Shown here piece by piece: positions 2,467 through 18,068 of a DNA stretch of 20,470 nucleotides. The stretch covers positions 2,333-22,802 of the forward strand of contig JAWABM010000011.1 in the NCBI GenBank assembly GCA_038999215.1, in the 5' to 3' direction. The DNA is from Candidatus Aenigmatarchaeota archaeon. GTDB taxonomy: Archaea > Aenigmatarchaeota > Aenigmatarchaeia > Aenigmatarchaeales > JACQIB01. A program made the translations under genes and the position numbers. How positions within the stretch are numbered: position 1 is the stretch's first letter; the number at the start of each line of letters is the position of its first letter. The notes below the pieces were generated by a model. That model made no database searches. It had not been told where the DNA came from and worked only from the letters and a program-made list of their open reading frames with translations.

Positions 2467-2543
2467 ATAAGGAATATGCAGTTCCGGCTTAAAAATCGCA
2501 TCTATAAATATTTTCGGCTCCTATGTACTTTTCGGCTTTAAGT

Positions 2544-3659
2544 ATGAAGATGAAAATCCCGTATTTTCCCGAGCCGGTCGACCTTGACGAGCGCGCCGAA
2601 TATATTGCGAAGCTCCATTTCAGCAAGAAATGTGGCGCGCCCTACTGGATAAAATATCAGGAAAAAAACAAGGTCAATCTTTCCGGTATAGATAGCTGGG
2701 AAAAGCTTATGGATATCCCTCCGCAGCCCGAGGCTGTTCTGCAGCCAGTTTGGAACGGCGGAAAAAAAGAGTACGATTACAACCCGCCCGCCGACCTTCT
2801 TCTTCCGAAGGCCATGCGCAAGGAAGTCCTATATCAGTCCCAATCCTCAGGATCGACGCAGAAGCCTAAGAAGTGCATCTGGTCTCGGAGCAGCCTGGGC
2901 GAATCGATAGCAAGTTCAAATTATTATTTGGAAAGGATGGGCGTTCCGCGCAATGTTGACTGGATGATAGTGGGCCCGGCGACGCTCTATCAGGAGTACA
3001 TGCTGCAGCTCGCGCGCAGCCGTGGCTCTAACCCGCCGTACTTCGTTTCTGTCCCGACCGAAGGGATAAAGCCCCTCTTTGCCAAGCCGATTGACGGGCT
3101 GGACGAAGGCCCGAAATATTATCGCAGGCGCATAATCGAAGATTCCGTGAGCGGTGTCAAGGCGTACCTTGAGGGCGGGAGCAACATCAAGGTCATGATA
3201 GCGCTGCCGTTCAACATAGACGATTTTGTAGATATCCCTGAAATGCGAAACCTCGACACCATACTTTTCGTCGGCTTCGGGATGAACGGCGGCAAGATTC
3301 GTGAGTGGAAGGAAGCCTTCCCTAAGCAGAAGATTCTCGGCTTCTACACGCATTTCATGAACGCCACAGCGCCGTACGTGCCGCGCAAGGGGCATCTTGA
3401 TTATTATGCGGCCGAGCCGCTGGTGCATTTCGATGTGGCTGAATATGACGAAAGAAGGCCGGGCGAAGTCAGCATCGTCAGGTATGGCGAGCGCGGCAGG
3501 ATATGCTTCACGCGCGCAGGCAACGACATTTTCTGGCGCCAGTGGGAGGATGCAGCTACCCGTATAAGGCCCTGTGAACTTTTCCCCTGGGACGGAGTGC
3601 GCGATGTGGACCGCTTTGTGCCCATGAAGCACGCATCCACGCTGGAATGCCTTTCCTGA
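2544..3659 (+). CDS. Adenylate-forming enzyme, EhpF/PaaK/LuxE-like
   Basis: P-loop-like SSGSTQKPK; N-terminal LHFS..CGAPYW and C-terminal YGERGR..F and PWDGVRDV resemble the EhpF-type (phenazine-modifying) family. Start is 2523, 2544 or 2550. Confidence 0.7.
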   Translation: MKMKIPYFPEPVDLDERAEYIAKLHFSKKCGAPYWIKYQEKNKVNLSGIDSWEKLMDIPPQPEAVLQPVWNGGKKEYDYNPPADLLLPKAMRKEVLYQSQSSGSTQKPKKCIWSRSSLGESIASSNYYLERMGVPRNVDWMIVGPATLYQEYMLQLARSRGSNPPYFVSVPTEGIKPLFAKPIDGLDEGPKYYRRRIIEDSVSGVKAYLEGGSNIKVMIALPFNIDDFVDIPEMRNLDTILFVGFGMNGGKIREWKEAFPKQKILGFYTHFMNATAPYVPRKGHLDYYAAEPLVHFDVAEYDERRPGEVSIVRYGERGRICFTRAGNDIFWRQWEDAATRIRPCELFPWDGVRDVDRFVPMKHASTLECLS

Positions 3660-5542: not shown

Positions 5543-6286
5543 TCAGATGCTCAAGCCTTTCTCTGCCGGCATAACTTCTATCCCCTGGCCGGTTATCTTG
5601 AAAGGATGCACGTCGGTCGAATGGTTTGTCCGCCTCATCTTCCTCACTAGCATGCTCTTGTCGTATTGAGAGCCGGAAATTCCAAGCGCCCGCAGGACTA
5701 TGACGCCGTCTGTCACGAACTCTTCGACCCCGAAGCGCGAAAGCGTGCCGTCTCCCTCGGCCATCTCGGATGTAAGAATTGTTGTCGCTCCGGTCGATTT
5801 GAGTTTGGTGAGCAGGTTGAACAGGTTCTTCCTGACCTCGAACGGGTCCTTGTAGTACAGCCCGAACAGCGAGGTCGAGTCTATGGCTACGCGCTCTATT
5901 TTCTCCCTTCTTATCTTTTCCGCCAGCTTGTCCATGAGTTCGGAAAGCTGGAACGGGTCCCTGTACCCTATTATGAGCTTTCCGGAATCCGCGTATTTTT
6001 TCAGGTCCCAGCCGAATCGGTTGACGTCGTTGAATATGTCATTGACCGTTTCTTCCATCGTAAGGAAAATGCACTTCTCGCCCCTCCTGAGGCCTTCCAT
6101 AATGAACTGCGCGCAGAAGATGGTCTTTCCAGTTCCAGTCGCCCCAGTGAGCAGCGTGGTCGAGCCCTTTATCAGGCCGCCCTCTATGTACCTGTCCAGG
6201 CCCTTGATGCCTGTCGGTATCCTTTCTAACCCCCCTTTTTTTGCGGATACCGCCTTCTTGGTCGCTGCTCTTTTCTTCATACTCAT
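5543..6286 (-). CDS. KaiC/RAD55-like single-domain ATPase
   Basis: RIPTGIKGLD, Walker A GATGTGKT, TMEE, Walker B VAIDS, GVEEFVTDG, VRKMR. Start is 6286 or 6280. Confidence 0.92.
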   Translation of the reverse strand: MSMKKRAATKKAVSAKKGGLERIPTGIKGLDRYIEGGLIKGSTTLLTGATGTGKTIFCAQFIMEGLRRGEKCIFLTMEETVNDIFNDVNRFGWDLKKYADSGKLIIGYRDPFQLSELMDKLAEKIRREKIERVAIDSTSLFGLYYKDPFEVRKNLFNLLTKLKSTGATTILTSEMAEGDGTLSRFGVEEFVTDGVIVLRALGISGSQYDKSMLVRKMRRTNHSTDVHPFKITGQGIEVMPAEKGLSI

Positions 6287-6331
6287 AAGTTCGGTTCCAA
6301 CATTTAAAAGTTTATGCGTAGAAATCATTTC

Positions 6332-6724
6332 ATGTCGATGCAGTTCGTCAAGAACATCGATGAGAAGCCGCCCGAGAGGAGCAGTGCTCAATCGGCCGAG
6401 GCCGAGATTGAGAGGATCAAATCCGAGTTCCTCTCGCTCCACAAGGAGGTCTTCTATACTGCGGACATGCTGATGGAGCTCGCCGAGGTCCCTCCTGGCA
6501 TGAGGAGCGCTGTGCGCAACAAGCTCCAGACCGCTTCGTTAAAGTATGGCATAAAGAAAATATCCTCTTCAGGCAAGCCGGTTTACGGCATTTCTGACCT
6601 TTGCCCCATCGATTACGCATGCTACAGGGGCTGGTGCTCGGGCAGGGTGCTTAAATACGGTTCGTGCGTCCCGGCTTGCCCGAGAAGGGACAAGAAAAAC
6701 CGCCCGGAATTCGTCGAGAAATAG
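6332..6724 (+). CDS. Hypothetical protein with Cys-rich C-terminus
   Basis: Fills the gap between the ATPase and rpl35Ae; contains CPIDYAC..WC..SCVPACP. Start is 6314, 6332 or 6338. Confidence 0.7.
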   Translation: MSMQFVKNIDEKPPERSSAQSAEAEIERIKSEFLSLHKEVFYTADMLMELAEVPPGMRSAVRNKLQTASLKYGIKKISSSGKPVYGISDLCPIDYACYRGWCSGRVLKYGSCVPACPRRDKKNRPEFVEK

Positions 6725-7073: not shown

Positions 7074-8348
7074 TCACTTTTTGGCCTTCTTCCCGCCGCC
7101 CTTCCTGGCTTCCTTCTTTTCCATTTCCTTGGCCGCCTTCTCGAGCTCCTTTTCGGCCGGTCTGCTCTTCTCTATGATGCCGCGCACGTCCATAACGAAG
7201 CGCCGCACGTACTCCTTGGTCATATAGACGTCCCTGTCGTTTATTTCTTCCAGTTTCTTGTCTTCCAGTTTCTTGCGCATCTCCACCACCTTGCCGAAAA
7301 CGTCCGCATACCACGGGCTCACCAGCCCCGGCTCTGTCAGGTACTTCCTGAAAGCTTCAGGAAGCTTTTCCGGCTCAGGCGGAAGCTTCTCCAGGGATTT
7401 CAGCGCGGCCACGCTGGCCTTTATCATGATTTCGTACATCTTCTTTATGTCGCTTGCCTTCTTTCCGGCTTCGAGGTTCGCCAGCAGCCTCTCTATCCTT
7501 TCCACGAACTTCTCCGTCCTCGCTATCCACTTGTCGACCTCCTCGCCCTTGATTTGCCTTATTTCCTTGTGCTCCACGGCCTTCCTGAACTTAACGACTT
7601 CGTCTACGAAGTCAGCCCATTCCTCTTCGAGCAGGCCTGGTGCCACAAGATGCGCCCTCATCTGCTTGCCTATCACTTTAGGAGCAGGCGGGCCGACACC
7701 GACGAACATCAGCACCGCCTGGGCAGCGTCGACAATGGCGTAGTAGAGGTCCTCCGCGATCATGTAGAGCTTCACGCTCTCCACCCTTCTCAGCCTCTTC
7801 GGCACGCCTTCCATCCTCGTTTCCGCCGCCTCTATAGTGGCCGGGAACTTGCCCCATTCGAGCATCTTCCTCATCGGTATGAAGTAGCCTGTGTCGTGGA
7901 TGGCGTAGCCCTCGCGGACTATGTTGTAGAACAGCGGGTGCTGCTTCATCACGCCGTCCATGAACTCCGTCAGCGCCAGGACCGGTTGGGGGTGCAGGCG
8001 CGGGTCCGTTTCGCTTGCCATTCTTGCGATGTCCCTGTCGACCTTCTCCCTGATGTCGTCGAACTTCTTGAGCGGCATCTTCGTGTCATCAAAGATTATG
8101 TATATATCGACGTCCGATTTGCCGGTGTAATCGCCGCGGGTGATGCTGCCCCATACCACGACGGCCTTGATGTAATCCTTGAACATGCCGAGTATCTTGT
8201 TCTTGAACTCGTCCGAGCTTTTCAGCCTCGTCCGTAGCGAGAACTTCCTGAGCTTCTCGCCCATCGTCTTGGCCTTCTCCTCCCTTTTCTGCTCGGTTTT
8301 CTTTTCAGCCACTTCTGCTCCCCTCTGATTGTTTTCGCCTGCTGCCAT
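7074..8348 (-). CDS. Pol-beta-type nucleotidyltransferase (MNT) fused to HEPN-like domain(s)
   Basis: WGSITRGDYTGKSDVDI (GS..DxD); LYYAIVDAAQAVL and RKAVEH (Rx4H); a second degenerate helical repeat follows. Confidence 0.85.
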   Translation of the reverse strand: MAAGENNQRGAEVAEKKTEQKREEKAKTMGEKLRKFSLRTRLKSSDEFKNKILGMFKDYIKAVVVWGSITRGDYTGKSDVDIYIIFDDTKMPLKKFDDIREKVDRDIARMASETDPRLHPQPVLALTEFMDGVMKQHPLFYNIVREGYAIHDTGYFIPMRKMLEWGKFPATIEAAETRMEGVPKRLRRVESVKLYMIAEDLYYAIVDAAQAVLMFVGVGPPAPKVIGKQMRAHLVAPGLLEEEWADFVDEVVKFRKAVEHKEIRQIKGEEVDKWIARTEKFVERIERLLANLEAGKKASDIKKMYEIMIKASVAALKSLEKLPPEPEKLPEAFRKYLTEPGLVSPWYADVFGKVVEMRKKLEDKKLEEINDRDVYMTKEYVRRFVMDVRGIIEKSRPAEKELEKAAKEMEKKEARKGGGKKAKK

Positions 8349-8394
8349 TTATATAAGTTGAACGGTTGAATATTTAAATACCACTATAAGGTAG

Positions 8395-9942
8395 TTACCT
8401 ATACTTCTCCTTCGACCATTCCGCGAGCTTGCCCTTCTCCTTCGCCGCCGTCCCCAGCGCGCCGTGCTCCTCCTCCGTCATGGTCAGCATCCCCTTTAAC
8501 GGGTCTAGCGCATGCTCCTTCATCTTGAGCAGCTGCACCTTCCATTCCGCCGCCTGCATGTCCATTCCGAAGAACTCTGGCGGCAGCTTCTTGAACTCGA
8601 CGTCCTTTTCCAGGTATTTCTTCATAAGCCTCATTGCGAGCACAGTGTCTTTTATCATGCCCTCCTCCCCTCCCCTTTCGAATATCCACCAGCCGGACTT
8701 GAAGCCCTTCTTCCTCAGCTCGTAGAGCCTCTGATAGATGTACATCTGGGCCTCGGATCCTATCGCTATCGGCAGGTGGGAGGGGTTCATGGGGGTCGGA
8801 ACTGTCATGTGCACCACCTTCAGCCTTTCGCCTGCTCCGGGCGGCAGCTCCCCTATGTCCTTCTTCGGGTCTATGTTGCAGCTCATCATGTGCTCCATGT
8901 CCATGGTGATGCCGAACAGCGGCGAGCCCAGCGATTTCACTAGCTGGTATATTTGCGGCAGGCGCGCGAGCCTCATGTAGCCCTCGTATCCCTTCTGGGC
9001 CATGGGAGTCTCGAAGCAGAAATACATCCCGCTCCTTTCAAGTATCGGCTTCGGGTCCTCGTATGGAGAGCCCTTGTAGGGGTTGAAGTGCCCCCAGACG
9101 TATTTGGCCGATACCGCCGGCACCCATTTGTCATGCTTCGTGAGAATTTCGTTGTCGCTCAGTATCTTGCCTACAATGCCCTCCCAGATGCCGTCGCGGT
9201 TGTCCTGCATCCACTTGGCAACAATGATGTAGGCCAGCCTTTCCATGCCGTAGTGCATCTCCCCGCTGTTGACCATCCTTATAAGGTGTTCCTCTGCTTT
9301 CTTTCTTGCCTTTGTTTGCAATTCCTTCTGCGCCTTTTCGTCCGGCATCTTTCCTTCGTGAGTGCTTACGTATTCGTCCATCAGGTCCTTGATGAACCAT
9401 TCCGGTGACGGTATGTACCTGAAAAGGTCCGGTATCGGCGAGTCCTTGGCCACCTTGAGAACCCAGTCCACGAGCTTCGGGTTCTCCTTCAGGAATTCGC
9501 CGAGCGGCCGCCCCCAGAAGTCGCACAAGTTAGTGTTCTGCAGCTCGTGCGAGAGGAGTATGAACGGATGGGCCTCGCTGGTGTGTATTGTGCAGTATTT
9601 GGCGCCGAGCTTTGAGCATTCCTTGACATGAATCATGAGCCTGTCGTGCGCCCTGCGGTAGTCCGCCACCGACGTCGAGTCGAGCGGCATGGTGTCCATG
9701 CCCGTTATTGCGACGCATTCGCCGTGGACCCCGAATGTTATGTTCAGGTTCTTGACAGCCTTGTCCACTTTGGCCTTCAGGTCGTCCTCTTTGAACTCGT
9801 TCACGCTTTCCAAGTCTATCTGCACGTGGTTCGTGCCCGATGTCGCTATCCACGTGAGCTTCCTGCTTATACCCAGGATCTCCTCCTTCTTTGCCACCGA
9901 CCATATCCCGCTGGAGACTCCTATCTCGTATCCTTTGGGCAT
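8395..9942 (-). CDS. Xylose isomerase-like/AP endonuclease 2 TIM-barrel protein with large insertion
   Basis: Ordered metal ligands GVHG, TIHT, CFET, MDMEH, VVHM, SHLPI and IFER; TGATG overlap with the upstream gene. Confidence 0.8.
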   Translation of the reverse strand: MPKGYEIGVSSGIWSVAKKEEILGISRKLTWIATSGTNHVQIDLESVNEFKEDDLKAKVDKAVKNLNITFGVHGECVAITGMDTMPLDSTSVADYRRAHDRLMIHVKECSKLGAKYCTIHTSEAHPFILLSHELQNTNLCDFWGRPLGEFLKENPKLVDWVLKVAKDSPIPDLFRYIPSPEWFIKDLMDEYVSTHEGKMPDEKAQKELQTKARKKAEEHLIRMVNSGEMHYGMERLAYIIVAKWMQDNRDGIWEGIVGKILSDNEILTKHDKWVPAVSAKYVWGHFNPYKGSPYEDPKPILERSGMYFCFETPMAQKGYEGYMRLARLPQIYQLVKSLGSPLFGITMDMEHMMSCNIDPKKDIGELPPGAGERLKVVHMTVPTPMNPSHLPIAIGSEAQMYIYQRLYELRKKGFKSGWWIFERGGEEGMIKDTVLAMRLMKKYLEKDVEFKKLPPEFFGMDMQAAEWKVQLLKMKEHALDPLKGMLTMTEEEHGALGTAAKEKGKLAEWSKEKYR

Positions 9943-11618
9943 CAGCCAACACCCATCCTTCCCTTTATGAATCCAACGATTGCTCCGAACTTCTCGCCGG
10001 CCTGCGTCAGGTAGTATTTCGACAGCCTTTCCTTGAACTCCCTTTCGTACGGCCCGGCCTTGACGAAGAATCTCTTGTGTTCCTCCTTGAGCGACACCTT
10101 TCCGAAAGGCGCGAACATGCCCCTGAACTCCTCCACGGTCTTCGCCCAGTCCTTTGCCAGCTCGCCCAAAGGAGTCAGCTTCTTCGGCTTCTCGCCGAAC
10201 ATGCCGGGGAATTCCTCCTTTATGACCTCGCTTATGTGCTTCTCCTCTATCCTTACGCCGAGCATCTCGTCTATGTAGTGCTCAAGCTCCTTCTGCCTGC
10301 ATTTCAGTTCCAGCAGCTTCACTAGCATGATGTTCTGCGAAAGCATGTAGGTCCTTATCGTGAACGTTATGTCCTCCAGCTCGCCCAAGGGCAAGACCGA
10401 GCCAACCCTTAACACGTCTATGTCGAAGAATATGTAATACAGCTGGTTCGGGTCCAGGCTGTGCATGCCCGCCTTCCACTCCTTCTTTATCTCCTCGACC
10501 ATGAGGTCGGCCTCGCATTCGATCTCGCCTTTCTTGAATTTCTTTTCAGGCACCCTGTTCAGCAGCCAGGGATATATGCTCGCCAGACCAGTCTTGTCGT
10601 TCAGTATCAGGTTCTCCCTCACATAGCTGTCGTAAGGGTCATGAATGAAGTCCCCGACCTTCTCTACCCCCGGTTTGTGCACCTCCTCTGCGCTGAATGC
10701 CTTCCAGGCCCACAGCCTCACGTTGTTCGAGAAGGTCTTCTGGCCGGTCACGTCCGCGAAAGAGCTGAGCGCGGAGCCCCTTCTAAATGCGGTCTCGTGC
10801 CCCGTCTTCATCATCTTGAACTTGGTTATGTAAGGTTTGAGCCATTCCCTGTATTCCTCCACGCTGGCCTTTCTGGCCTCGACCATGCCTTTTATCGTAG
10901 CGTACCTTTCCTTGGCGGCCTCTCCGAACAGCTTCTTCCACTCCACGTAAAGGCGGTTCTTCGTCGCTAGGACGACCCCTTCGGCCTTGCTGACGCCGAG
11001 CTTCTTGGATATGCCTTCAGGGTCCACGTCCTTGTCGGACAGTTTCATGAAGTCCGCCACTATTGTGGGCCAGCGGGGAGCTATCGAGCGCAGCGCCACG
11101 GGCGCCTGGCCCTGCACGTCAGTATGTATGTCGACCTGGTCTATGAACATCGCCCTTAGCGAATGCTCGTCCTTCTTCTCGAAATAATCGAGTATTTCCC
11201 GGTACTTGCGCAGGTCGTGCTTGGCCAGCTCGTAGTCGGAGACGAGCGCGGCGGTTGACGCCATTCCCTGCTTTATCGTGGCCTCGAGCTCCCTTTTCTG
11301 TGAGAGCGTGCGCTGGTAGTATTCCGTGTGCGTGGGCGACACCTCTATCCATTCGTCCACCTTCACCACATTGTAGCCCCACTTTGGCAGCTGGAAAACA
11401 AGGGCATAGTATAGCGCCGAGGCCACCCCCGGCGCAGCTGTCATGTTAAGCTCCGTGGTCTGGTTGACCTTGGTTTCCATGCCTGGCGGCTTTGTCGGCC
11501 CTGTCGCCAGGTAGAGCCCTATGTAGGGGCTGCTCGCTTCTGTCAGCGGTATGCCGGTGCCTTTCGGCTTGCCGGCCCTCTTTTCAGCCTTCATGAAATC
11601 GAATATTGGCTTGTCCAT
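9942..11618 (-). CDS. Uncharacterised 558-aa helical/coiled-coil protein
   Basis: Long ORF with host codon usage; GGCGG RBS before ATG 11618; no motif recognised. Confidence 0.85.
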   Translation of the reverse strand: MDKPIFDFMKAEKRAGKPKGTGIPLTEASSPYIGLYLATGPTKPPGMETKVNQTTELNMTAAPGVASALYYALVFQLPKWGYNVVKVDEWIEVSPTHTEYYQRTLSQKRELEATIKQGMASTAALVSDYELAKHDLRKYREILDYFEKKDEHSLRAMFIDQVDIHTDVQGQAPVALRSIAPRWPTIVADFMKLSDKDVDPEGISKKLGVSKAEGVVLATKNRLYVEWKKLFGEAAKERYATIKGMVEARKASVEEYREWLKPYITKFKMMKTGHETAFRRGSALSSFADVTGQKTFSNNVRLWAWKAFSAEEVHKPGVEKVGDFIHDPYDSYVRENLILNDKTGLASIYPWLLNRVPEKKFKKGEIECEADLMVEEIKKEWKAGMHSLDPNQLYYIFFDIDVLRVGSVLPLGELEDITFTIRTYMLSQNIMLVKLLELKCRQKELEHYIDEMLGVRIEEKHISEVIKEEFPGMFGEKPKKLTPLGELAKDWAKTVEEFRGMFAPFGKVSLKEEHKRFFVKAGPYEREFKERLSKYYLTQAGEKFGAIVGFIKGRMGVG

Positions 11619-11626
11619 GGAACCGC

Positions 11627-11878
11627 CTACGTTAGCACGAATATGAGTATTCCGAGCAGGAGCAGCAGCACGCCTATGACCCTTCCGGCTATGGTGAAGC
11701 TCTTTGCCTGGTAATCGCTTATGTCGGGAAAATACATCAGTATGAGCGCGCCCATTATCACAAGCAGCGAGCCGAACAGCTTGGACGAGAACGACCATAC
11801 GAGATATACGACCGCGCCGATGATTATGAACAGTATCATGACGGTCGCTGTCTGGAAGGCCTGCGCCGAGGAGTTCAT
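11627..11878 (-). CDS. Small membrane protein (about 3 TM helices)
   Basis: Three hydrophobic stretches; first gene of the operon; TATA-like TTTATATT about 22-29 nt upstream. Confidence 0.85.
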   Translation of the reverse strand: MNSSAQAFQTATVMILFIIIGAVVYLVWSFSSKLFGSLLVIMGALILMYFPDISDYQAKSFTIAGRVIGVLLLLLGILIFVLT

Positions 11879-11946
11879 AATAATAATTTTAAGGGGCGCA
11901 ATATAAAGTTATATATCTTACTCAAGCCTGATATTTAGTGATTGCT

Positions 11947-12444
11947 ATGGTTATCGCGAGGACGAAGATGGTCATACAGGACGACCTCTTGAAGCCTTGG
12001 CCAAAGGCCACTGTCAGCTACGCCGGCCCGAACGCAGAAAGGTTCTACAAGGAGATACCCAAGCTGCTGCAGTCCGTGTTCCGCGTGCACCCCGGCGACA
12101 TACAGGAGAAGAAGTTCTCCTGGTCGAAGGGTGAGCCTGAGAAGTTCAGCGTCAAATGGGAGATGGACAAGAACCTGGACAGGAACTCCTATTACCAGGT
12201 CACTGTCGAACTCAAGGGCACGGGCGGGAAGGAGGGCAAGGCCGAGATTGTAGTGGACGGCGCCCTGAGGACCGAATACCCCCAGGACACCGTCTGGGAG
12301 CGCTCGCTTCTTTACGAGTTCCTTAGGGTATTCTGGCACAGGATTTTCTACTGGTCAAAAAGGGAGCAGATGATTAGGGAAGGCAGCAGGCTCTTGGCCG
12401 TCTATCTGGAGAATCTGAAGAGGCTCGCCCATCAGAAGGAATGA
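11947..12444 (+). CDS. Uncharacterised alpha/beta protein, paralogue A
   Basis: Aligns by eye to the next gene (KEIP.L, F, W, G.L.TE.P, R.FY). Confidence 0.85.
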   Translation: MVIARTKMVIQDDLLKPWPKATVSYAGPNAERFYKEIPKLLQSVFRVHPGDIQEKKFSWSKGEPEKFSVKWEMDKNLDRNSYYQVTVELKGTGGKEGKAEIVVDGALRTEYPQDTVWERSLLYEFLRVFWHRIFYWSKREQMIREGSRLLAVYLENLKRLAHQKE

Positions 12445-12448
12445 TGAG

Positions 12449-12946
12449 ATGGGAGAGGAATACGTGGTCAGGACCGAGGTCCTTCCGCTTGAGGGCGAGA
12501 TAGAAAGGGAGCTTGAAGGCAGCAATCCAACGAAGCTGCTCAAGGAGATACCTTCCCTGATGAAGCAGCTCTTTAAGATAGGCTCCTCCTCTTTCTTTGA
12601 AGACAAGATAAAGTGGGACAAGCTCGGCGATCCTGTCGAGTTCTTCGCTCAGTGGAGGGGCAAGGTCGGTGAGGACGCCCGCACAAACTTCTGGCTCAAG
12701 GTCGTAGTTCAGGGCAGGCAGGGCCTAAAGGACAAGAGGGGCAGCGTCACCGTGAAGATAACAGGCTGGCTCGAGACAGAGATACCGCATGAGACGTCCC
12801 TTGACAAGGCGATGAAGCTGGCCAACATGAGGATGTTCTATGCGAAGCAGCTGCAGGAATATGTGAGGAGGAACAGAGCGCTCATCGAGCGCCTTGACAT
12901 GGACATAAGGAGGGCCATGGAAGCCGGCCTTCCAGAGGAGATATGA
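12449..12946 (+). CDS. Uncharacterised alpha/beta protein, paralogue B
   Basis: Same length (165 aa) and shared motifs with the upstream gene; GGAA/GAG RBS-like sequence. Confidence 0.85.
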   Translation: MGEEYVVRTEVLPLEGEIERELEGSNPTKLLKEIPSLMKQLFKIGSSSFFEDKIKWDKLGDPVEFFAQWRGKVGEDARTNFWLKVVVQGRQGLKDKRGSVTVKITGWLETEIPHETSLDKAMKLANMRMFYAKQLQEYVRRNRALIERLDMDIRRAMEAGLPEEI

Positions 12947-13258
12947 ATGGCTTTTGATATTTTCAGGAAGAAGCCCAAGGAGCCGGCAGAGCCTGAGGAG
13001 GTGGAGCTTCCGCCGGAGCTTGAGCACCTGAGGCTTGCCGGTCCGCCGTTCCCCGGGAAGGCGGAGCCCGCCAGGACCGGCCTGGCTCCGGAGGCGCCGC
13101 AGCGCAGGCCTTTCGTGCCCGAGGAATTCGCCGAGGAAAGGTTCGGACCGGCGCCTGATAAGCCCAAGGAGTCCGAGGACAGGATAGCAATAATCCTCAG
13201 CAAGCTCGACATAATCGAGTCCAGACTGAAAATAATCGAGGAAAAGCTGAAGAAGTGA
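12947..13258 (+). CDS. Hypothetical protein: Pro/Glu-rich linker plus C-terminal coiled coil
   Basis: GGAG RBS, start abuts the upstream stop; C-terminal heptads IAIILSKLDIIESRLKIIEEKL. Confidence 0.8.
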   Translation: MAFDIFRKKPKEPAEPEEVELPPELEHLRLAGPPFPGKAEPARTGLAPEAPQRRPFVPEEFAEERFGPAPDKPKESEDRIAIILSKLDIIESRLKIIEEKLKK

Positions 13259-13642
13259 TTATTCGGACCCTTTCCGGCTCTTCTTTATGTCGTCCCTTAT
13301 CCCGTTCTCAATGTTCAGATATGCGTCAATGCAGCTCCCGCATTCCCTGTTCCCGCAGTGCCTCATTGCCGTCAGGAGGGACAGGTTTCTTGCCAGTGCG
13401 GTCTCAAGTCCCGAAAGCTTCCCATTTGGATCAGCGATGTTGCCGTTGGACCTGAACTCGTTGAAATGCTCGTAGACGCGCAATAACGCATTGTAAGCAT
13501 TGTCGCAGGCGGCATCCCTCCCAATCTCCTTCGACTTTTCCGGTCTGAATTTGGGGCAGTAATTCCTGAAATCCTTATAAGCTTCCAGCCATGCCTCGCT
13601 GCCTGTCAGATACTCCTTTTTCGGCTTCTCAGAAGCTTCCAT
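13259..13642 (-). CDS. Hypothetical Cys-containing protein downstream of tfb
   Basis: GGAGG RBS within the tfb 3' end; HCGNRECGSC motif. GTG at 13648 is an alternative start. Confidence 0.7.
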   Translation of the reverse strand: MEASEKPKKEYLTGSEAWLEAYKDFRNYCPKFRPEKSKEIGRDAACDNAYNALLRVYEHFNEFRSNGNIADPNGKLSGLETALARNLSLLTAMRHCGNRECGSCIDAYLNIENGIRDDIKKSRKGSE

Positions 13643-13644
13643 GC

Positions 13645-14643
13645 TCACGCCTCCTCCTTGACCCTCTTCTCGACTTCCTCCTCTATCCCGAGCTTATCAA
13701 CGAGTTCCTTGAAGCGGTTCCTTATCGTGACCTCGGTGACTCCGATTGCGTCAGCGATTTCGCGTTGGGTGCGCTTCTCGCCCTCTAGAACGGCGGCTAT
13801 GTAAAGGGCCGCCGCAGCGACGCCTGTCGGGCCCTTGCCCGAAGTCACTTCGTTCTTCTTCGCTTCCTTCAGGATCTGTATCGCCTTTGCCTGGACCTTG
13901 TCGGGAAGCCCCAGCATGCTGGCGAAGCGGGGCACATAGTCCTGCGGCGGAGCCGGCAGTATTCTCACGCGCAGCTCCCTTGCGATGTAGCGGTACGTCC
14001 TTCCGATCTCCCTGCGCTCCACTCCGCTCGCTTCCGCGATCTCCTCGAGCGTGCGGGGCGTTCCCATTTCCCTGCAGACAGCATAAAGCAGCGAGGCGAT
14101 GACGGATTCCATCGACCTCCCCCTCACGAGCCCGCGGTCGACGGCCTGCTCGTACTTCTTAGCCACCTCCTCGTGCACTTTCTTCGGCAGCCCCAGGAAC
14201 GAGACGAGCCTCTGCAGTTCGCTCAGGGCGAAGCTCAGGTTCCTGTCCTTCGATTCCACGAGCCTCTTCTGCCAGATCTTCAGTCTGTGGTATTGCGCCC
14301 TCTTCGCAGGTGCTACCCTGAACAGCTCGCCCTTGCCGCGGCCTATCTCGGTGGTAAGTCCTTTGTCGTGCTTCGTGAAAGTCAGCGGCGCCCCGGCGCG
14401 CGTGCGCTTTGATCTTTGTTCGTCGTCAAACGCCCTCCATTCAGGCGACGCGTCGACCATGGAATCCTCAAGAACCAGCCCGCATTTGGCGCAGACGCGC
14501 TCACCGCGCGCCTCGTCCTCGAAAAAATGGGTGCATCCGCATTCAGGGCACCTTGTTATCTTCTTCCCGGTGGGCTGCTTCTTTATCGGCTGCATGGCCC
14601 TTCTTGGGGTCAGTTTCGTCTCAGAAGGCTTCTTTTTGGGCAC
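13645..14643 (-). CDS. tfb: Transcription initiation factor IIB
   Basis: Zn ribbon CPEC..CAKC, B-reader PEWRAF, two cyclin repeats (RGRS, SGKGP, VTEVTIRNRFKEL); AGGTGA RBS with GTG start. Confidence 0.98.
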   Translation of the reverse strand: MPKKKPSETKLTPRRAMQPIKKQPTGKKITRCPECGCTHFFEDEARGERVCAKCGLVLEDSMVDASPEWRAFDDEQRSKRTRAGAPLTFTKHDKGLTTEIGRGKGELFRVAPAKRAQYHRLKIWQKRLVESKDRNLSFALSELQRLVSFLGLPKKVHEEVAKKYEQAVDRGLVRGRSMESVIASLLYAVCREMGTPRTLEEIAEASGVERREIGRTYRYIARELRVRILPAPPQDYVPRFASMLGLPDKVQAKAIQILKEAKKNEVTSGKGPTGVAAAALYIAAVLEGEKRTQREIADAIGVTEVTIRNRFKELVDKLGIEEEVEKRVKEEA

Positions 14644-16806: not shown

Positions 16807-17358
16807 ATGGACAGGATAATTGTTTTCTCTCTCGCTGTTATTGCAATCAACATAGCGGTTTTTCTCCTCGTGCCGGCTGGTGACATATCGCTTTCGTTCG
16901 CGGACTTCCGTCCGCAGGCGCTCTTCCTTTTCCAGTTCATGCACTTCAATGCGACGCATCTCATAGAGAATGTTGCCGGCCTGCTGCTCGTGGCGCTCAT
17001 AGCGGCAGAGCTCGAAATGAAGTTCGAGAGCTTCCTTGTTTCCTATTTTGTCGGCGTCTTCATAGCCGTGCCGATGCTGGCGTTCTTTCCGGACGCTATA
17101 ATAGCCGGAAACTCGACTGGCATATACAGCGTGCTTGCGGCCGCCTTGGTGAAGGCCAGGAACTTCGTGCCGCAGAAGATAAGCCTTCCGCTTTTCGCCA
17201 TGTTCATATTTTCCCTTTCAATAGCAAACTTTTTTATGTGCGGACCGTGCGTAAATAGGTTATTGAAGACGGACATGTTCCACTTTTCCGGCTTCGCCAG
17301 CGGGATTGCCTCGAGGTACCGCAGGACCGGTGCCAAAAGGCTGCTGAGGTGCGATTGA
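16807..17358 (+). CDS. Rhomboid-family intramembrane serine protease
   Basis: FMHFNATHLIEN, catalytic GNSTG and FHFSGFASG; multiple TM helices. Confidence 0.85.
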   Translation: MDRIIVFSLAVIAINIAVFLLVPAGDISLSFADFRPQALFLFQFMHFNATHLIENVAGLLLVALIAAELEMKFESFLVSYFVGVFIAVPMLAFFPDAIIAGNSTGIYSVLAAALVKARNFVPQKISLPLFAMFIFSLSIANFFMCGPCVNRLLKTDMFHFSGFASGIASRYRRTGAKRLLRCD

Positions 17359-18068
17359 TGAGGGTTGAAACGGGGATCAAGGGCTTGGATGAGATGCTTA
17401 ACGGGGGGTTCCTGCCGGGCAAGGTCATGCTCGTTTCCGGCCCTGCCGGCACTGGCAAGACCACCTTTGCCATGCATTTTGTCTTCGCCGGGACGAAGAA
17501 AGGCGAGCATTGCCTGTTCATCACGTTGGAGCAGAACAAGAGGAAGATGATAGAGGACATGCTTTCTGTAGGGATGGACGTCAAGGGCAACAGGAAGCTC
17601 ACCATCATCGGCGGTTCGCTTGCCGACATAATGAGGTTCCAGCAGAAGGTCAAGGCCAAGCCGCAGGATTTTCTCGATGAGATAGCCGAGATAGTGAAGA
17701 AAAACAGCGTAAAAAGGGTCGCAATAGATTCTTCGAATCTTTTCCTCATGCTGTTCAAGAACGACGAGGAGAGAAGGAATGCGCTCCTTGCTCTTGCCGA
17801 GATGCTGAGCAGTTTGGGCTGTACGACCCTGCTGACCTCCGAGGTCAGGAACGGCACCCGCGACATGAGCTGGTACGGCTTCGAGGAGTTCGTCGTGGAC
17901 GGCGTTATAACGCTGACGAACGACATCTCTTTCGACAACTATTACAAGAATGCGATAGCCGTCAGGAAGATGAGGGGCAGCTCTCACAACAAATCGGTCG
18001 TCGAGTACAAGATAACCGACAAGGGGATAGTGGTCTTTCCGGATTCGGCCATAAAGAGAAGGGTATAA
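17358..18068 (+). CDS. KaiC/RAD55-like ATPase (second paralogue)
   Basis: TGIKGLDEML, Walker A GPAGTGKT, VAIDS, EEFVVDG, RKMRG; TGATG coupling to the rhomboid gene; GAGGTG RBS. Confidence 0.92.
   Translation: MRVETGIKGLDEMLNGGFLPGKVMLVSGPAGTGKTTFAMHFVFAGTKKGEHCLFITLEQNKRKMIEDMLSVGMDVKGNRKLTIIGGSLADIMRFQQKVKAKPQDFLDEIAEIVKKNSVKRVAIDSSNLFLMLFKNDEERRNALLALAEMLSSLGCTTLLTSEVRNGTRDMSWYGFEEFVVDGVITLTNDISFDNYYKNAIAVRKMRGSSHNKSVVEYKITDKGIVVFPDSAIKRRV

Follow-up and report, generated by a model that had tools for sequence, protein, structure and literature searches.

Within a 20,470-nucleotide stretch of the genome of a Candidatus Aenigmatarchaeota archaeon (contig JAWABM010000011.1, positions 2,333 to 22,802; hereafter the window), six genes, here called A to F, diverge from one short spacer, with a gene for a fused MNT-HEPN protein next to A. 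We found that Aenigmatarchaeota inherit this locus vertically, as a conserved housekeeping module. The module is real, undescribed and lineage-defining. It joins two enzymes of known superfamilies, an endonuclease IV (Endo IV)-like metallo-TIM barrel (A) and an MNT-HEPN nucleotidyltransferase (NTase), with four orphan families: protein B, the small membrane protein C, the paralogues D and E, and F.

Distribution and inheritance

Homologues of the locus proteins carry the label Ca. Aenigmatarchaeota. This bears out an earlier note on this DNA, made from the sequence alone, which had pointed to similar genes in DPANN genomes. Among 151 genomes of the phylum, 0.4-1.9 Mb in size, A and B are each present in 150, the D/E family (nearly always in two copies) and MNT-HEPN each in 148, and C in 131; the module genes are mostly single-copy. 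In the sole B-negative genome (G004), A, D/E, MNT and tfb are missing as well, so that an assembly gap is probable.

Conservation extends to gene order. In 60 of the 150 B-positive regions, picked for family spread and long contigs, we found A in 59, C in 50, a D/E pair in 47, F in 32 (with an iterated profile) and MNT in 49. In 59 of the 60 loci A lies downstream of B in the same orientation, and 53 of 60 pairs are separated by at most 38 bp. The arrangement E-D<>C-B-A is shared by 46 of the 60 loci, 31 of which have F as well, a recurrence that exceeds chance. Missing genes reflect partly contig ends and partly true rearrangements (L047, L053, L082, L084). Phyletic profiling and synteny had been proposed in the earlier note as a check, and A to E turned out to be present in 131 to 150 of the 151 genomes and linked in most of the 60 loci.

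In a quick maximum likelihood tree of 75 B proteins, host labels change 27 times for 27 groups, the minimum being 26; shuffled labels gave a mean of 57.4 changes, and 0 of 200 shuffles came as low as the observed 27. The B tree thus follows host families, which indicates vertical descent, and the gene order of the window corresponds to one clade in it. A pattern-based search of viral contigs found no relative of B, and a B-only scan of genome contigs found none, its patterns being too specific. The earlier view of the locus as core rather than mobile therefore holds, given its near-universal, mostly single-copy occurrence, the tree and the lack of a viral relative of B in that search. Of the best 80 of 255 matches in an MNT alignment search, about 45 are titled Aenigmatarchaeota, and these best 80 include no clear arrangement of another phylum's own. 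Two loci titled Nanoarchaeota and Woesearchaeota (L104 and L110) show the Aenigmatarchaeota-type arrangement and may be mislabelled.

A B-A-MNT core and an accessory tier

The module is not of one piece. In families f9, f18 and f26 the order is a short B (about 400 amino acids, aa), then A, then MNT. The 12 genomes of these families yielded no C, and 11 of the 12 have a single, unlinked D/E gene. In L190-L194 this lone D/E lies near cdc6, polB, a CBS-domain gene and hjc, away from B-A-MNT. The same core reappears outside the phylum. A B profile run against 1.84 billion representatives gave 402 proteins at E ≤ 0.001, 150 of them listed; ten distant matches were looked up, and the four clusters named were two from nanohaloarchaea and two from Aenigmarchaeota. 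A profile built from the distant B copies retrieved many nanohaloarchaeal proteins, one of them from Ca. Nanohalococcus occultus. We collected 20 nanohaloarchaeal-type loci, which are metagenome loci without labels assigned by similarity. B-A is present in 14 of them and B-A-(x)-MNT in 10, most misses falling on short contigs. C and D/E gave no match at E ≤ 0.01 in these 20 loci, and a weak F-like gene diverges from B in three.

Since B-A-MNT is kept in the short-B families and in nanohaloarchaea, whereas C and a linked D/E are not, we regard B-A-MNT as the constant core. The accessory tier (C, the duplicated D/E and F) appears to be mostly Aenigmatarchaeota-specific. The six-gene unit proposed earlier thus stands as a frequent arrangement, but the part that is conserved throughout includes MNT and leaves out C to F. 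Likewise, with no C found in f9, f18, f26 or the nanohaloarchaeal-type loci, membrane association looks like an accessory layer.

In several nanohaloarchaeal-type loci a conserved gene of about 190 aa lies antisense between A and MNT (L208:12212-12796, L210:12314-12898 and L212:12100-12672, minus strand).

Organisation of the locus

The features of the module in the window are as follows.

A: 8395-9942, minus strand, 515 aa; Endo IV-like metallo-TIM barrel with a conserved C-terminal tail
B: 9942-11618, minus strand, 558 aa counted from ATG; orphan protein
C: 11627-11878, minus strand, 83 aa; small membrane protein
D: 11947-12444, plus strand, 165 aa; orphan protein
E: 12449-12946, plus strand, 165 aa; paralogue of D
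F: 12947-13258, plus strand, 103 aa
MNT-HEPN fusion: 7074-8348, minus strand, 424 aa; outside 8395-13258 but part of the conserved core; Pol-beta-type NTase domain, HEPN-like helical domain and C-terminal helical extension
Divergent spacer between C and D: 11879-11946, 68 bp; AT-rich, 28% GC
TATA-like boxes, back-to-back in the spacer: 11900-11907 (minus) and 11909-11916 (plus); putative promoter elements
TATA-like box ahead of MNT: 8371-8378, minus strand; 22 nt before the start codon, putative function

The genes are tightly packed on both strands. On the minus strand C and B are 8 bp apart, B and A overlap by 1 bp (TGATG), and 46 bp separate A from MNT; on the plus strand the gaps are 4 bp between D and E and 0 bp between E and F. 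The six open reading frames (ORFs), their lengths, these gaps within the locus and the AT-rich spacer are all as the earlier note had them. GC content is about 55% near the spacer, and short AT-rich spacers are also seen in the 15 relatives displayed. For B, the ORF finder gives a longer, 618-aa variant that overlaps C; we used the 558-aa ATG start. D and E, described before as twin paralogues, share 27% identity over 110 aa (E 2e-14). In codon usage, the six genes rank between the 61st and 98th percentile among 248 long ORFs of the genome, in agreement with the host-like usage noted earlier. MNT-HEPN does come next in the leftward series, as had been said, but it has a TATA-like box of its own and its transcription may well be separate and leaderless.

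The two enzymes

The barrel of A is split by a large insertion at about residues 125-300. Its match to PF01261 is weak (E 1.2e-6; 28.9 bits, below the 31.1 cut-off); across the family, 40 of 60 members match PF01261 at E ≤ 0.1, the best at 1e-19, and the A profile matches MJ1311 (PDB 3wqo) and Endo IV structures with E-values of 4e-6 to 5e-4. Residues H73, H120, E311, D348 and E422 are invariant in 60 copies, and H351, H378 and H389 are kept in 58-59 of the 60; two further conserved histidines lie in the insertion (H285) and the tail (H477). Nanohaloarchaeal A proteins are much longer (835-930 aa), yet 10 of 10 retain every one of the ten His/Asp/Glu positions checked. The prediction of an enzymatic subunit is supported, and eight of the conserved positions in A are Endo IV-type metal ligands.

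Endo IV has a nine-residue trinuclear metal site, and its base-flipping Tyr sits three residues after the first His. We considered whether A is a canonical Endo IV (Nfo) and rejected this, as only eight of the nine metal positions are present and the Tyr is not kept: alignment column 76 holds I/L/T/S/V in 84 of 95 sequences, with Tyr in 13 of 95, at the next column. The same genome also has a gene for another, full-length PF01261 protein. The best reading of A is a putative metal-dependent phosphoester hydrolase with a new substrate. One of the 60 A proteins (alignment A2) has a glutaredoxin match (E 3e-10), which suggests a fusion.

The MNT-HEPN protein of the window matches Pfam Polbeta (E 1e-7) and HEPN (E 0.018). 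Its best PDB matches are kanamycin nucleotidyltransferase (KNTase; E 6e-9) and MntA (E 3e-4), both confined to the NTase domain and about 65-85 profile positions. The NTase residues G67, S68, S78, D79, D81, D87 and D88 are invariant in 50 of 50 main copies; the motif is intact in 8 of 8 nanohaloarchaeal copies, and the catalytic Asp positions are kept in 16 of 16 short tandem paralogues. The HEPN motif R-x4-H fares differently, being lost in all 8 nanohaloarchaeal copies, with its Arg replaced by Trp in all 16 short paralogues. Transfer, not RNase activity, would therefore be the constant function. Two more MNT-HEPN paralogues lie in tandem on another contig of the same genome (G000:C5:34127-35949, minus strand); the longer keeps the transferase motif and the shorter has a degenerate one.

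According to the accessible part of PMC3710099, which defines the Rx4-6H motif, MNT-HEPN is a known toxin-antitoxin architecture, and fused MNT-HEPN proteins tend toward protein-modifying enzymes. A signature MNT-HEPN family, cls.004259/NEQ050, occurs in 36 of 67 DPANN genomes (PMC6393860, Table 1), and the accessible text of that study suggests a toxin-antitoxin module with an unknown important role. We rejected a toxin-antitoxin dyad for the protein studied here: it is a fused protein of 380-480 aa, whose gene has a fixed position and occurs in 148 of 151 genomes, and not a patchy or mobile two-gene system.

Protein B and its predicted complex with A

B was modelled with a predicted local distance difference test score (pLDDT) of 86 and a predicted TM score (pTM) of 0.79. 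The predicted fold has a beta-sheet base, a long antiparallel coiled-coil arm (residues 97-270) and a small helical head. Polar residues that are invariant or nearly so lie close together in the sequence of the head region (H134, D135, R137, D160, D163, D189, E213 and K220). B has no family match in Pfam, NCBIfam, PHROG or PADLOC and no usable match in the ESM Atlas, and at E ≤ 0.001 Foldseek found nothing in PDB or BFVD, where the beta-base was not searched alone. Fold searches return only generic coiled-coil hairpins, the arm superposing on SMC/Rad50 coiled coils with Z 10-11. No ATPase family was found for the window's B (Pfam, E ≤ 0.1) or, over 61 members, among the 25 of 65 families listed.

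Several candidate relationships were dismissed. Weak repeated matches to levivirus maturation proteins (TM ≤ 0.16) and large helical toxins are matches of shape only. The H-D-x-R motif resembles a histidine-kinase H-box, but the likeness is of the motif only, with no HisKA among the Pfam families listed. The beta-core has a secondary-structure order similar to that of D/E, yet profile-profile probability is 0.4% for the whole protein and at most 3.6% for core segments. Nanohaloarchaeal-type B proteins (alignment A9; P0393, P0426 and P0441) have an N-terminal C-x-H/F-G and a C-terminal C-K/R-H motif, possibly a zinc site, and the annotation of some includes an MBF1-like helix-turn-helix. A zinc ribbon is seen in a few Aenigmatarchaeota B proteins.

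Complex prediction for B 52-555 with A 4-499 gave a score of 0.57, against 0.00 for the best of 3 controls. The runs share at least 80% of contacts and partner pLDDT is at least 82; no interface was given. In the benchmark of this score, 116 of 157 solved pairs and 2 of 215 mismatched pairs came up to the mark; those that did so with scores of 0.60 or below were only 18 solved pairs together with both mismatches, so that support for the A-B pair is weak. The membrane-associated multiprotein complex of the earlier note is thus retained in part: A-B has this degree of support, but the membrane component looks accessory.

Evidence that the core is expressed comes from the published proteome of Ca. 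Nanohalobium constans (PMC7443923, Dataset S2a), in which LC1Nh_0808 was detected with 17 peptides (abundance index, PAI, 0.74), LC1Nh_0809 with 29 (0.76) and LC1Nh_0811 with 16 (1.0). These are likely orthologues of B, A and MNT, respectively, assigned by gene order (identical upstream to L203, L212 and L218), by their lengths of 1665, 2718 and 1263 bp, and by 5' ends compared by eye. The similar PAI of A and B is compatible with equal amounts, but such values are common in Dataset S2a. LC1Nh_0269 and the genes beside atpD, which were checked first, are not the module. LC1Nh_0810, at the same position as the antisense gene of about 190 aa, was also detected.

The accessory proteins

C of the window has three hydrophobic segments, as expected from its description as a protein with three transmembrane helices, but what the family shares as its core is a Gly-rich hairpin of two helices, about 53-57 aa long, with a conserved FP...YQ loop; some lineages extend it to three or four helices. 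Hydropathy is at least 1.6 in 50 of 50 copies. One genome has three tandem C-like genes (L080:10654-12099).

The model of D (pLDDT 95) has a beta-beta-alpha-beta4-alpha order, in which a long C-terminal helix lies against a curved antiparallel sheet. The best fold match has Z 7.8 with a root-mean-square deviation of 4-5 Å, and deviations are 3-5 Å over the range Z 7.0-7.8. Helix-grip, KA1 and TBP-like folds score alike in this range, the nearest including lipid carriers of the START/PRELI/Aster type and KA1 domains at Z 7.0-7.5. Because several folds tie, no function can be deduced for D. No sequence family match was found in 96 members. B and D, for which the earlier note had suggested structure searches, were modelled confidently but have no clear solved match.

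F, in an alignment of 19 sequences, consists of a short basic-aromatic N-terminal motif, a disordered Pro/Glu-rich linker and a C-terminal coiled coil. Its named homologues are all from Aenigmarchaeota, except one labelled only 'archaeon'.

Proposed mechanism and alternatives

We consider it highly probable that A, B, C, D/E and F form one functional module. Its chemistry is a more tentative matter. Two phylum-level lineages have retained a transferase alongside a phosphoester hydrolase, a pairing that suggests a writer and an eraser, and the reading that we favour, with somewhat less than even confidence, is a membrane-tethered system of nucleotidylylation. The NTase would transfer a nucleoside monophosphate to a protein, possibly B, or build a short oligonucleotide signal, in the manner of a GlnE-type domesticated MNT-HEPN. 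A, as a putative metal-dependent phosphodiesterase in its predicted complex with B, would remove the nucleotide tag. The conserved head of B may be the acceptor or may present the substrate, and C, D/E and F would hold the core at the inner face of the membrane in most Aenigmatarchaeota. A bolder extension, which we would not expect to prove right, is that the module is an essential, lineage-defining machine of the branch of Aenigmatarchaeota and Nanohaloarchaeota without counterpart elsewhere, in which tagging and untagging of the head of B, whose architecture appears to be new, at the membrane possibly gates the switch between free and host-attached states.

A number of observations weigh against the writer/eraser proposal, in which activity and substrate are both conjectural. 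The R-x4-H motif of HEPN, which a transferase need not keep, is largely retained in the main Aenigmatarchaeota copies (R in 48 and H in 44 of 50). In A, P/H/T/G occur two residues ahead of the last His, where MJ1311 has Asp. The A-B score lies within a range rated more often wrong than right unless the pair is likely beforehand, and in family f11 (L047) A and B do not lie together. MNT is separable from the module, having its own TATA-like box and being missing from 11 of the 60 B loci, and its family appears wider (the 36 of 67 DPANN genomes in the accessible text of PMC6393860) than the known range of A or B. Scanning B, D/E and F for amphipathic helices gave no discrimination, so that C by itself carries the case for membrane tethering.

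The retained HEPN motif (44-48 of 50 main copies) would be natural if the module processed or repaired RNA ends, with HEPN cutting RNA, A healing the 3'-phosphate or cyclic-phosphate end, the NTase adding nucleotides and B serving as a scaffold. Endo IV enzymes possess 3'-diesterase activity, and the translation and transcription neighbours (tfb, rpl35Ae, eIF5A and aminoacyl-tRNA synthetases) would suit such a role. We nevertheless think it unlikely, for the motif is lost in all 8 nanohaloarchaeal copies and its Arg in all 16 short paralogues, membrane protein C is left unexplained, and the housekeeping neighbours vary by lineage. The separability of MNT, including its absence from all sampled f14 loci, and the DPANN-wide occurrence of MNT-HEPN reported in PMC6393860 could instead mean that A-B-C-D/E-F is one membrane-associated phosphodiesterase machine and MNT-HEPN an unrelated long-standing neighbour. 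This is less likely still, as B-A-MNT is the arrangement that Aenigmatarchaeota, the short-B families and nanohaloarchaea have all kept, and in nanohaloarchaea C and D/E are not linked to it.

The folds nearest to D point to an apparatus for host lipids or host contact, in which START-like D/E would carry lipids, A trim head groups, the NTase activate, and C and F anchor; START/PRELI/Aster and KA1 are among the neighbours at Z 7.0-7.5, and Nha. antarcticus depends on host lipids, as stated in the accessible part of PMC11035636. A Z below 8 reflects a common arrangement for which unrelated folds tie, D/E gave no match in the 20 nanohaloarchaeal-type loci, and no signal peptide-like or extracellular part is seen in A or B, so we find this distinctly improbable; a role in division or host contact, as the earlier note had suggested, gained no support. 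Very unlikely, in our judgement, is a nuclease for DNA repair or chromosome processing with a coiled-coil partner, loosely resembling Mre11-Rad50. A does fall within the Endo IV superfamily and the B arm superposes on SMC/Rad50 coiled coils (Z 10-11), but the matches of B span residues 97-270 only and tie with many unrelated hairpins, the searches gave no ATPase family in B, the base-flipping Tyr position of A is I/L/T/S/V, and the genome has its separate full-length PF01261 protein. Least probable of all, and already disfavoured, is an anti-virus or toxin-antitoxin system. MNT-HEPN is a toxin-antitoxin architecture (PMC3710099, accessible part) and PADLOC gives weak matches to the NTase domain of MNT only, yet the module is near-universal and mostly single-copy, with host-like codons and a family-congruent tree, and PADLOC 2.0 returned 0 matches for A-F at E ≤ 0.01.

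Neighbouring genes

The locus is flanked by tfb, histone, eIF5A, rpl35Ae and KaiC-like genes. Its earlier placement between tfb and rpl35Ae is right in that both flank it, but an unconserved 129-aa ORF (13259-13648, minus strand) lies between F and tfb. This ORF has four Cys and overlaps the tfb stop; it has no family match and no homologue among 60 related loci, and appears to be a lineage-specific insertion. Further away, a 378-aa ORF without a Pfam match (2523-3659, plus strand) lies upstream of transglutaminase-like, GNAT and V4R genes; we take its SSGST motif to be reminiscent of adenylate-forming ligases. Two KaiC-like ATPases are encoded within 12 kb (5543-6442, minus strand, and 17349-18068, plus strand), one adjoining a V4R protein, and KaiC-like genes occur near the module in 10 of 61 loci.

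Novelty and significance

We found no description of the cluster in a literature search that left most subscription papers outside, and the accessible text of PMC9258230, PMC8407114, PMC10266531 and bioRxiv 2025.08.05.668663 contains nothing on it. PMC8204110, in its accessible part, reports an Aenigmarchaeota-specific module 128 without functional prediction, and its supplements may list these families. The accessible text of PMC6393860 describes two other enigmatic DPANN families, without partners, and its supplement gave no match for the family ids. As far as these sources go, only MNT-HEPN was already known, flagged as a DPANN signature (PMC6393860).

The results provide two new marker families, A and B, that link Aenigmatarchaeota with nanohaloarchaea, as well as a defined enzymatic pair. 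Most metabolism has been lost in these archaea, yet the module is kept as faithfully as tfb; it therefore probably has an indispensable role that is performed otherwise, or not at all, elsewhere. Since likely orthologues are made in Ca. Nanohalobium constans and B is encoded in Ca. Nanohalococcus occultus, the function of DPANN-specific core genes can be put directly to the test.

Comparison with known systems

One described counterpart is the cls.004259/NEQ050 family: the window's fused MNT-HEPN, with its housekeeping context, fits it by description, which is how the two were compared, and not by sequence. The accessible text of PMC6393860 names no partner genes for that family and does not mention a B-A-MNT linkage.

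Among the orphan proteins, D shares a sheet-on-helix layout with helix-grip (SRPBCC/START), KA1 and TBP-like folds (Z 7-7.8, TM about 0.5), but it has no sequence family match and no single fold is prominent. The hairpin 97-270 of B superposes on the arms of SMC/Rad50 and prefoldin (Z 10-11); unlike SMC/Rad50, B lacks an ATPase head, and the rest of the protein has no listed match.

With Endo IV/AP_endonuc_2 proteins (PF01261; MJ1311, 3wqo; T. maritima Endo IV, 2x7v), A shares the TIM barrel and eight His/Asp/Glu positions of the metal site. It differs in that neither the Asp two residues ahead of the last His nor the Tyr following the first is kept, and in having a 175- to 500-residue insertion, a C-terminal tail, H285/H477 and its coupling to B. 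MNT shares the Pol-beta NTase motif with KNTase, GlnE/GlnD and MntA-HepT. In GlnD/GlnE the removing activity belongs to an HD or a second NTase domain, whereas in the module described here the proposed removing enzyme would be a separate TIM barrel.

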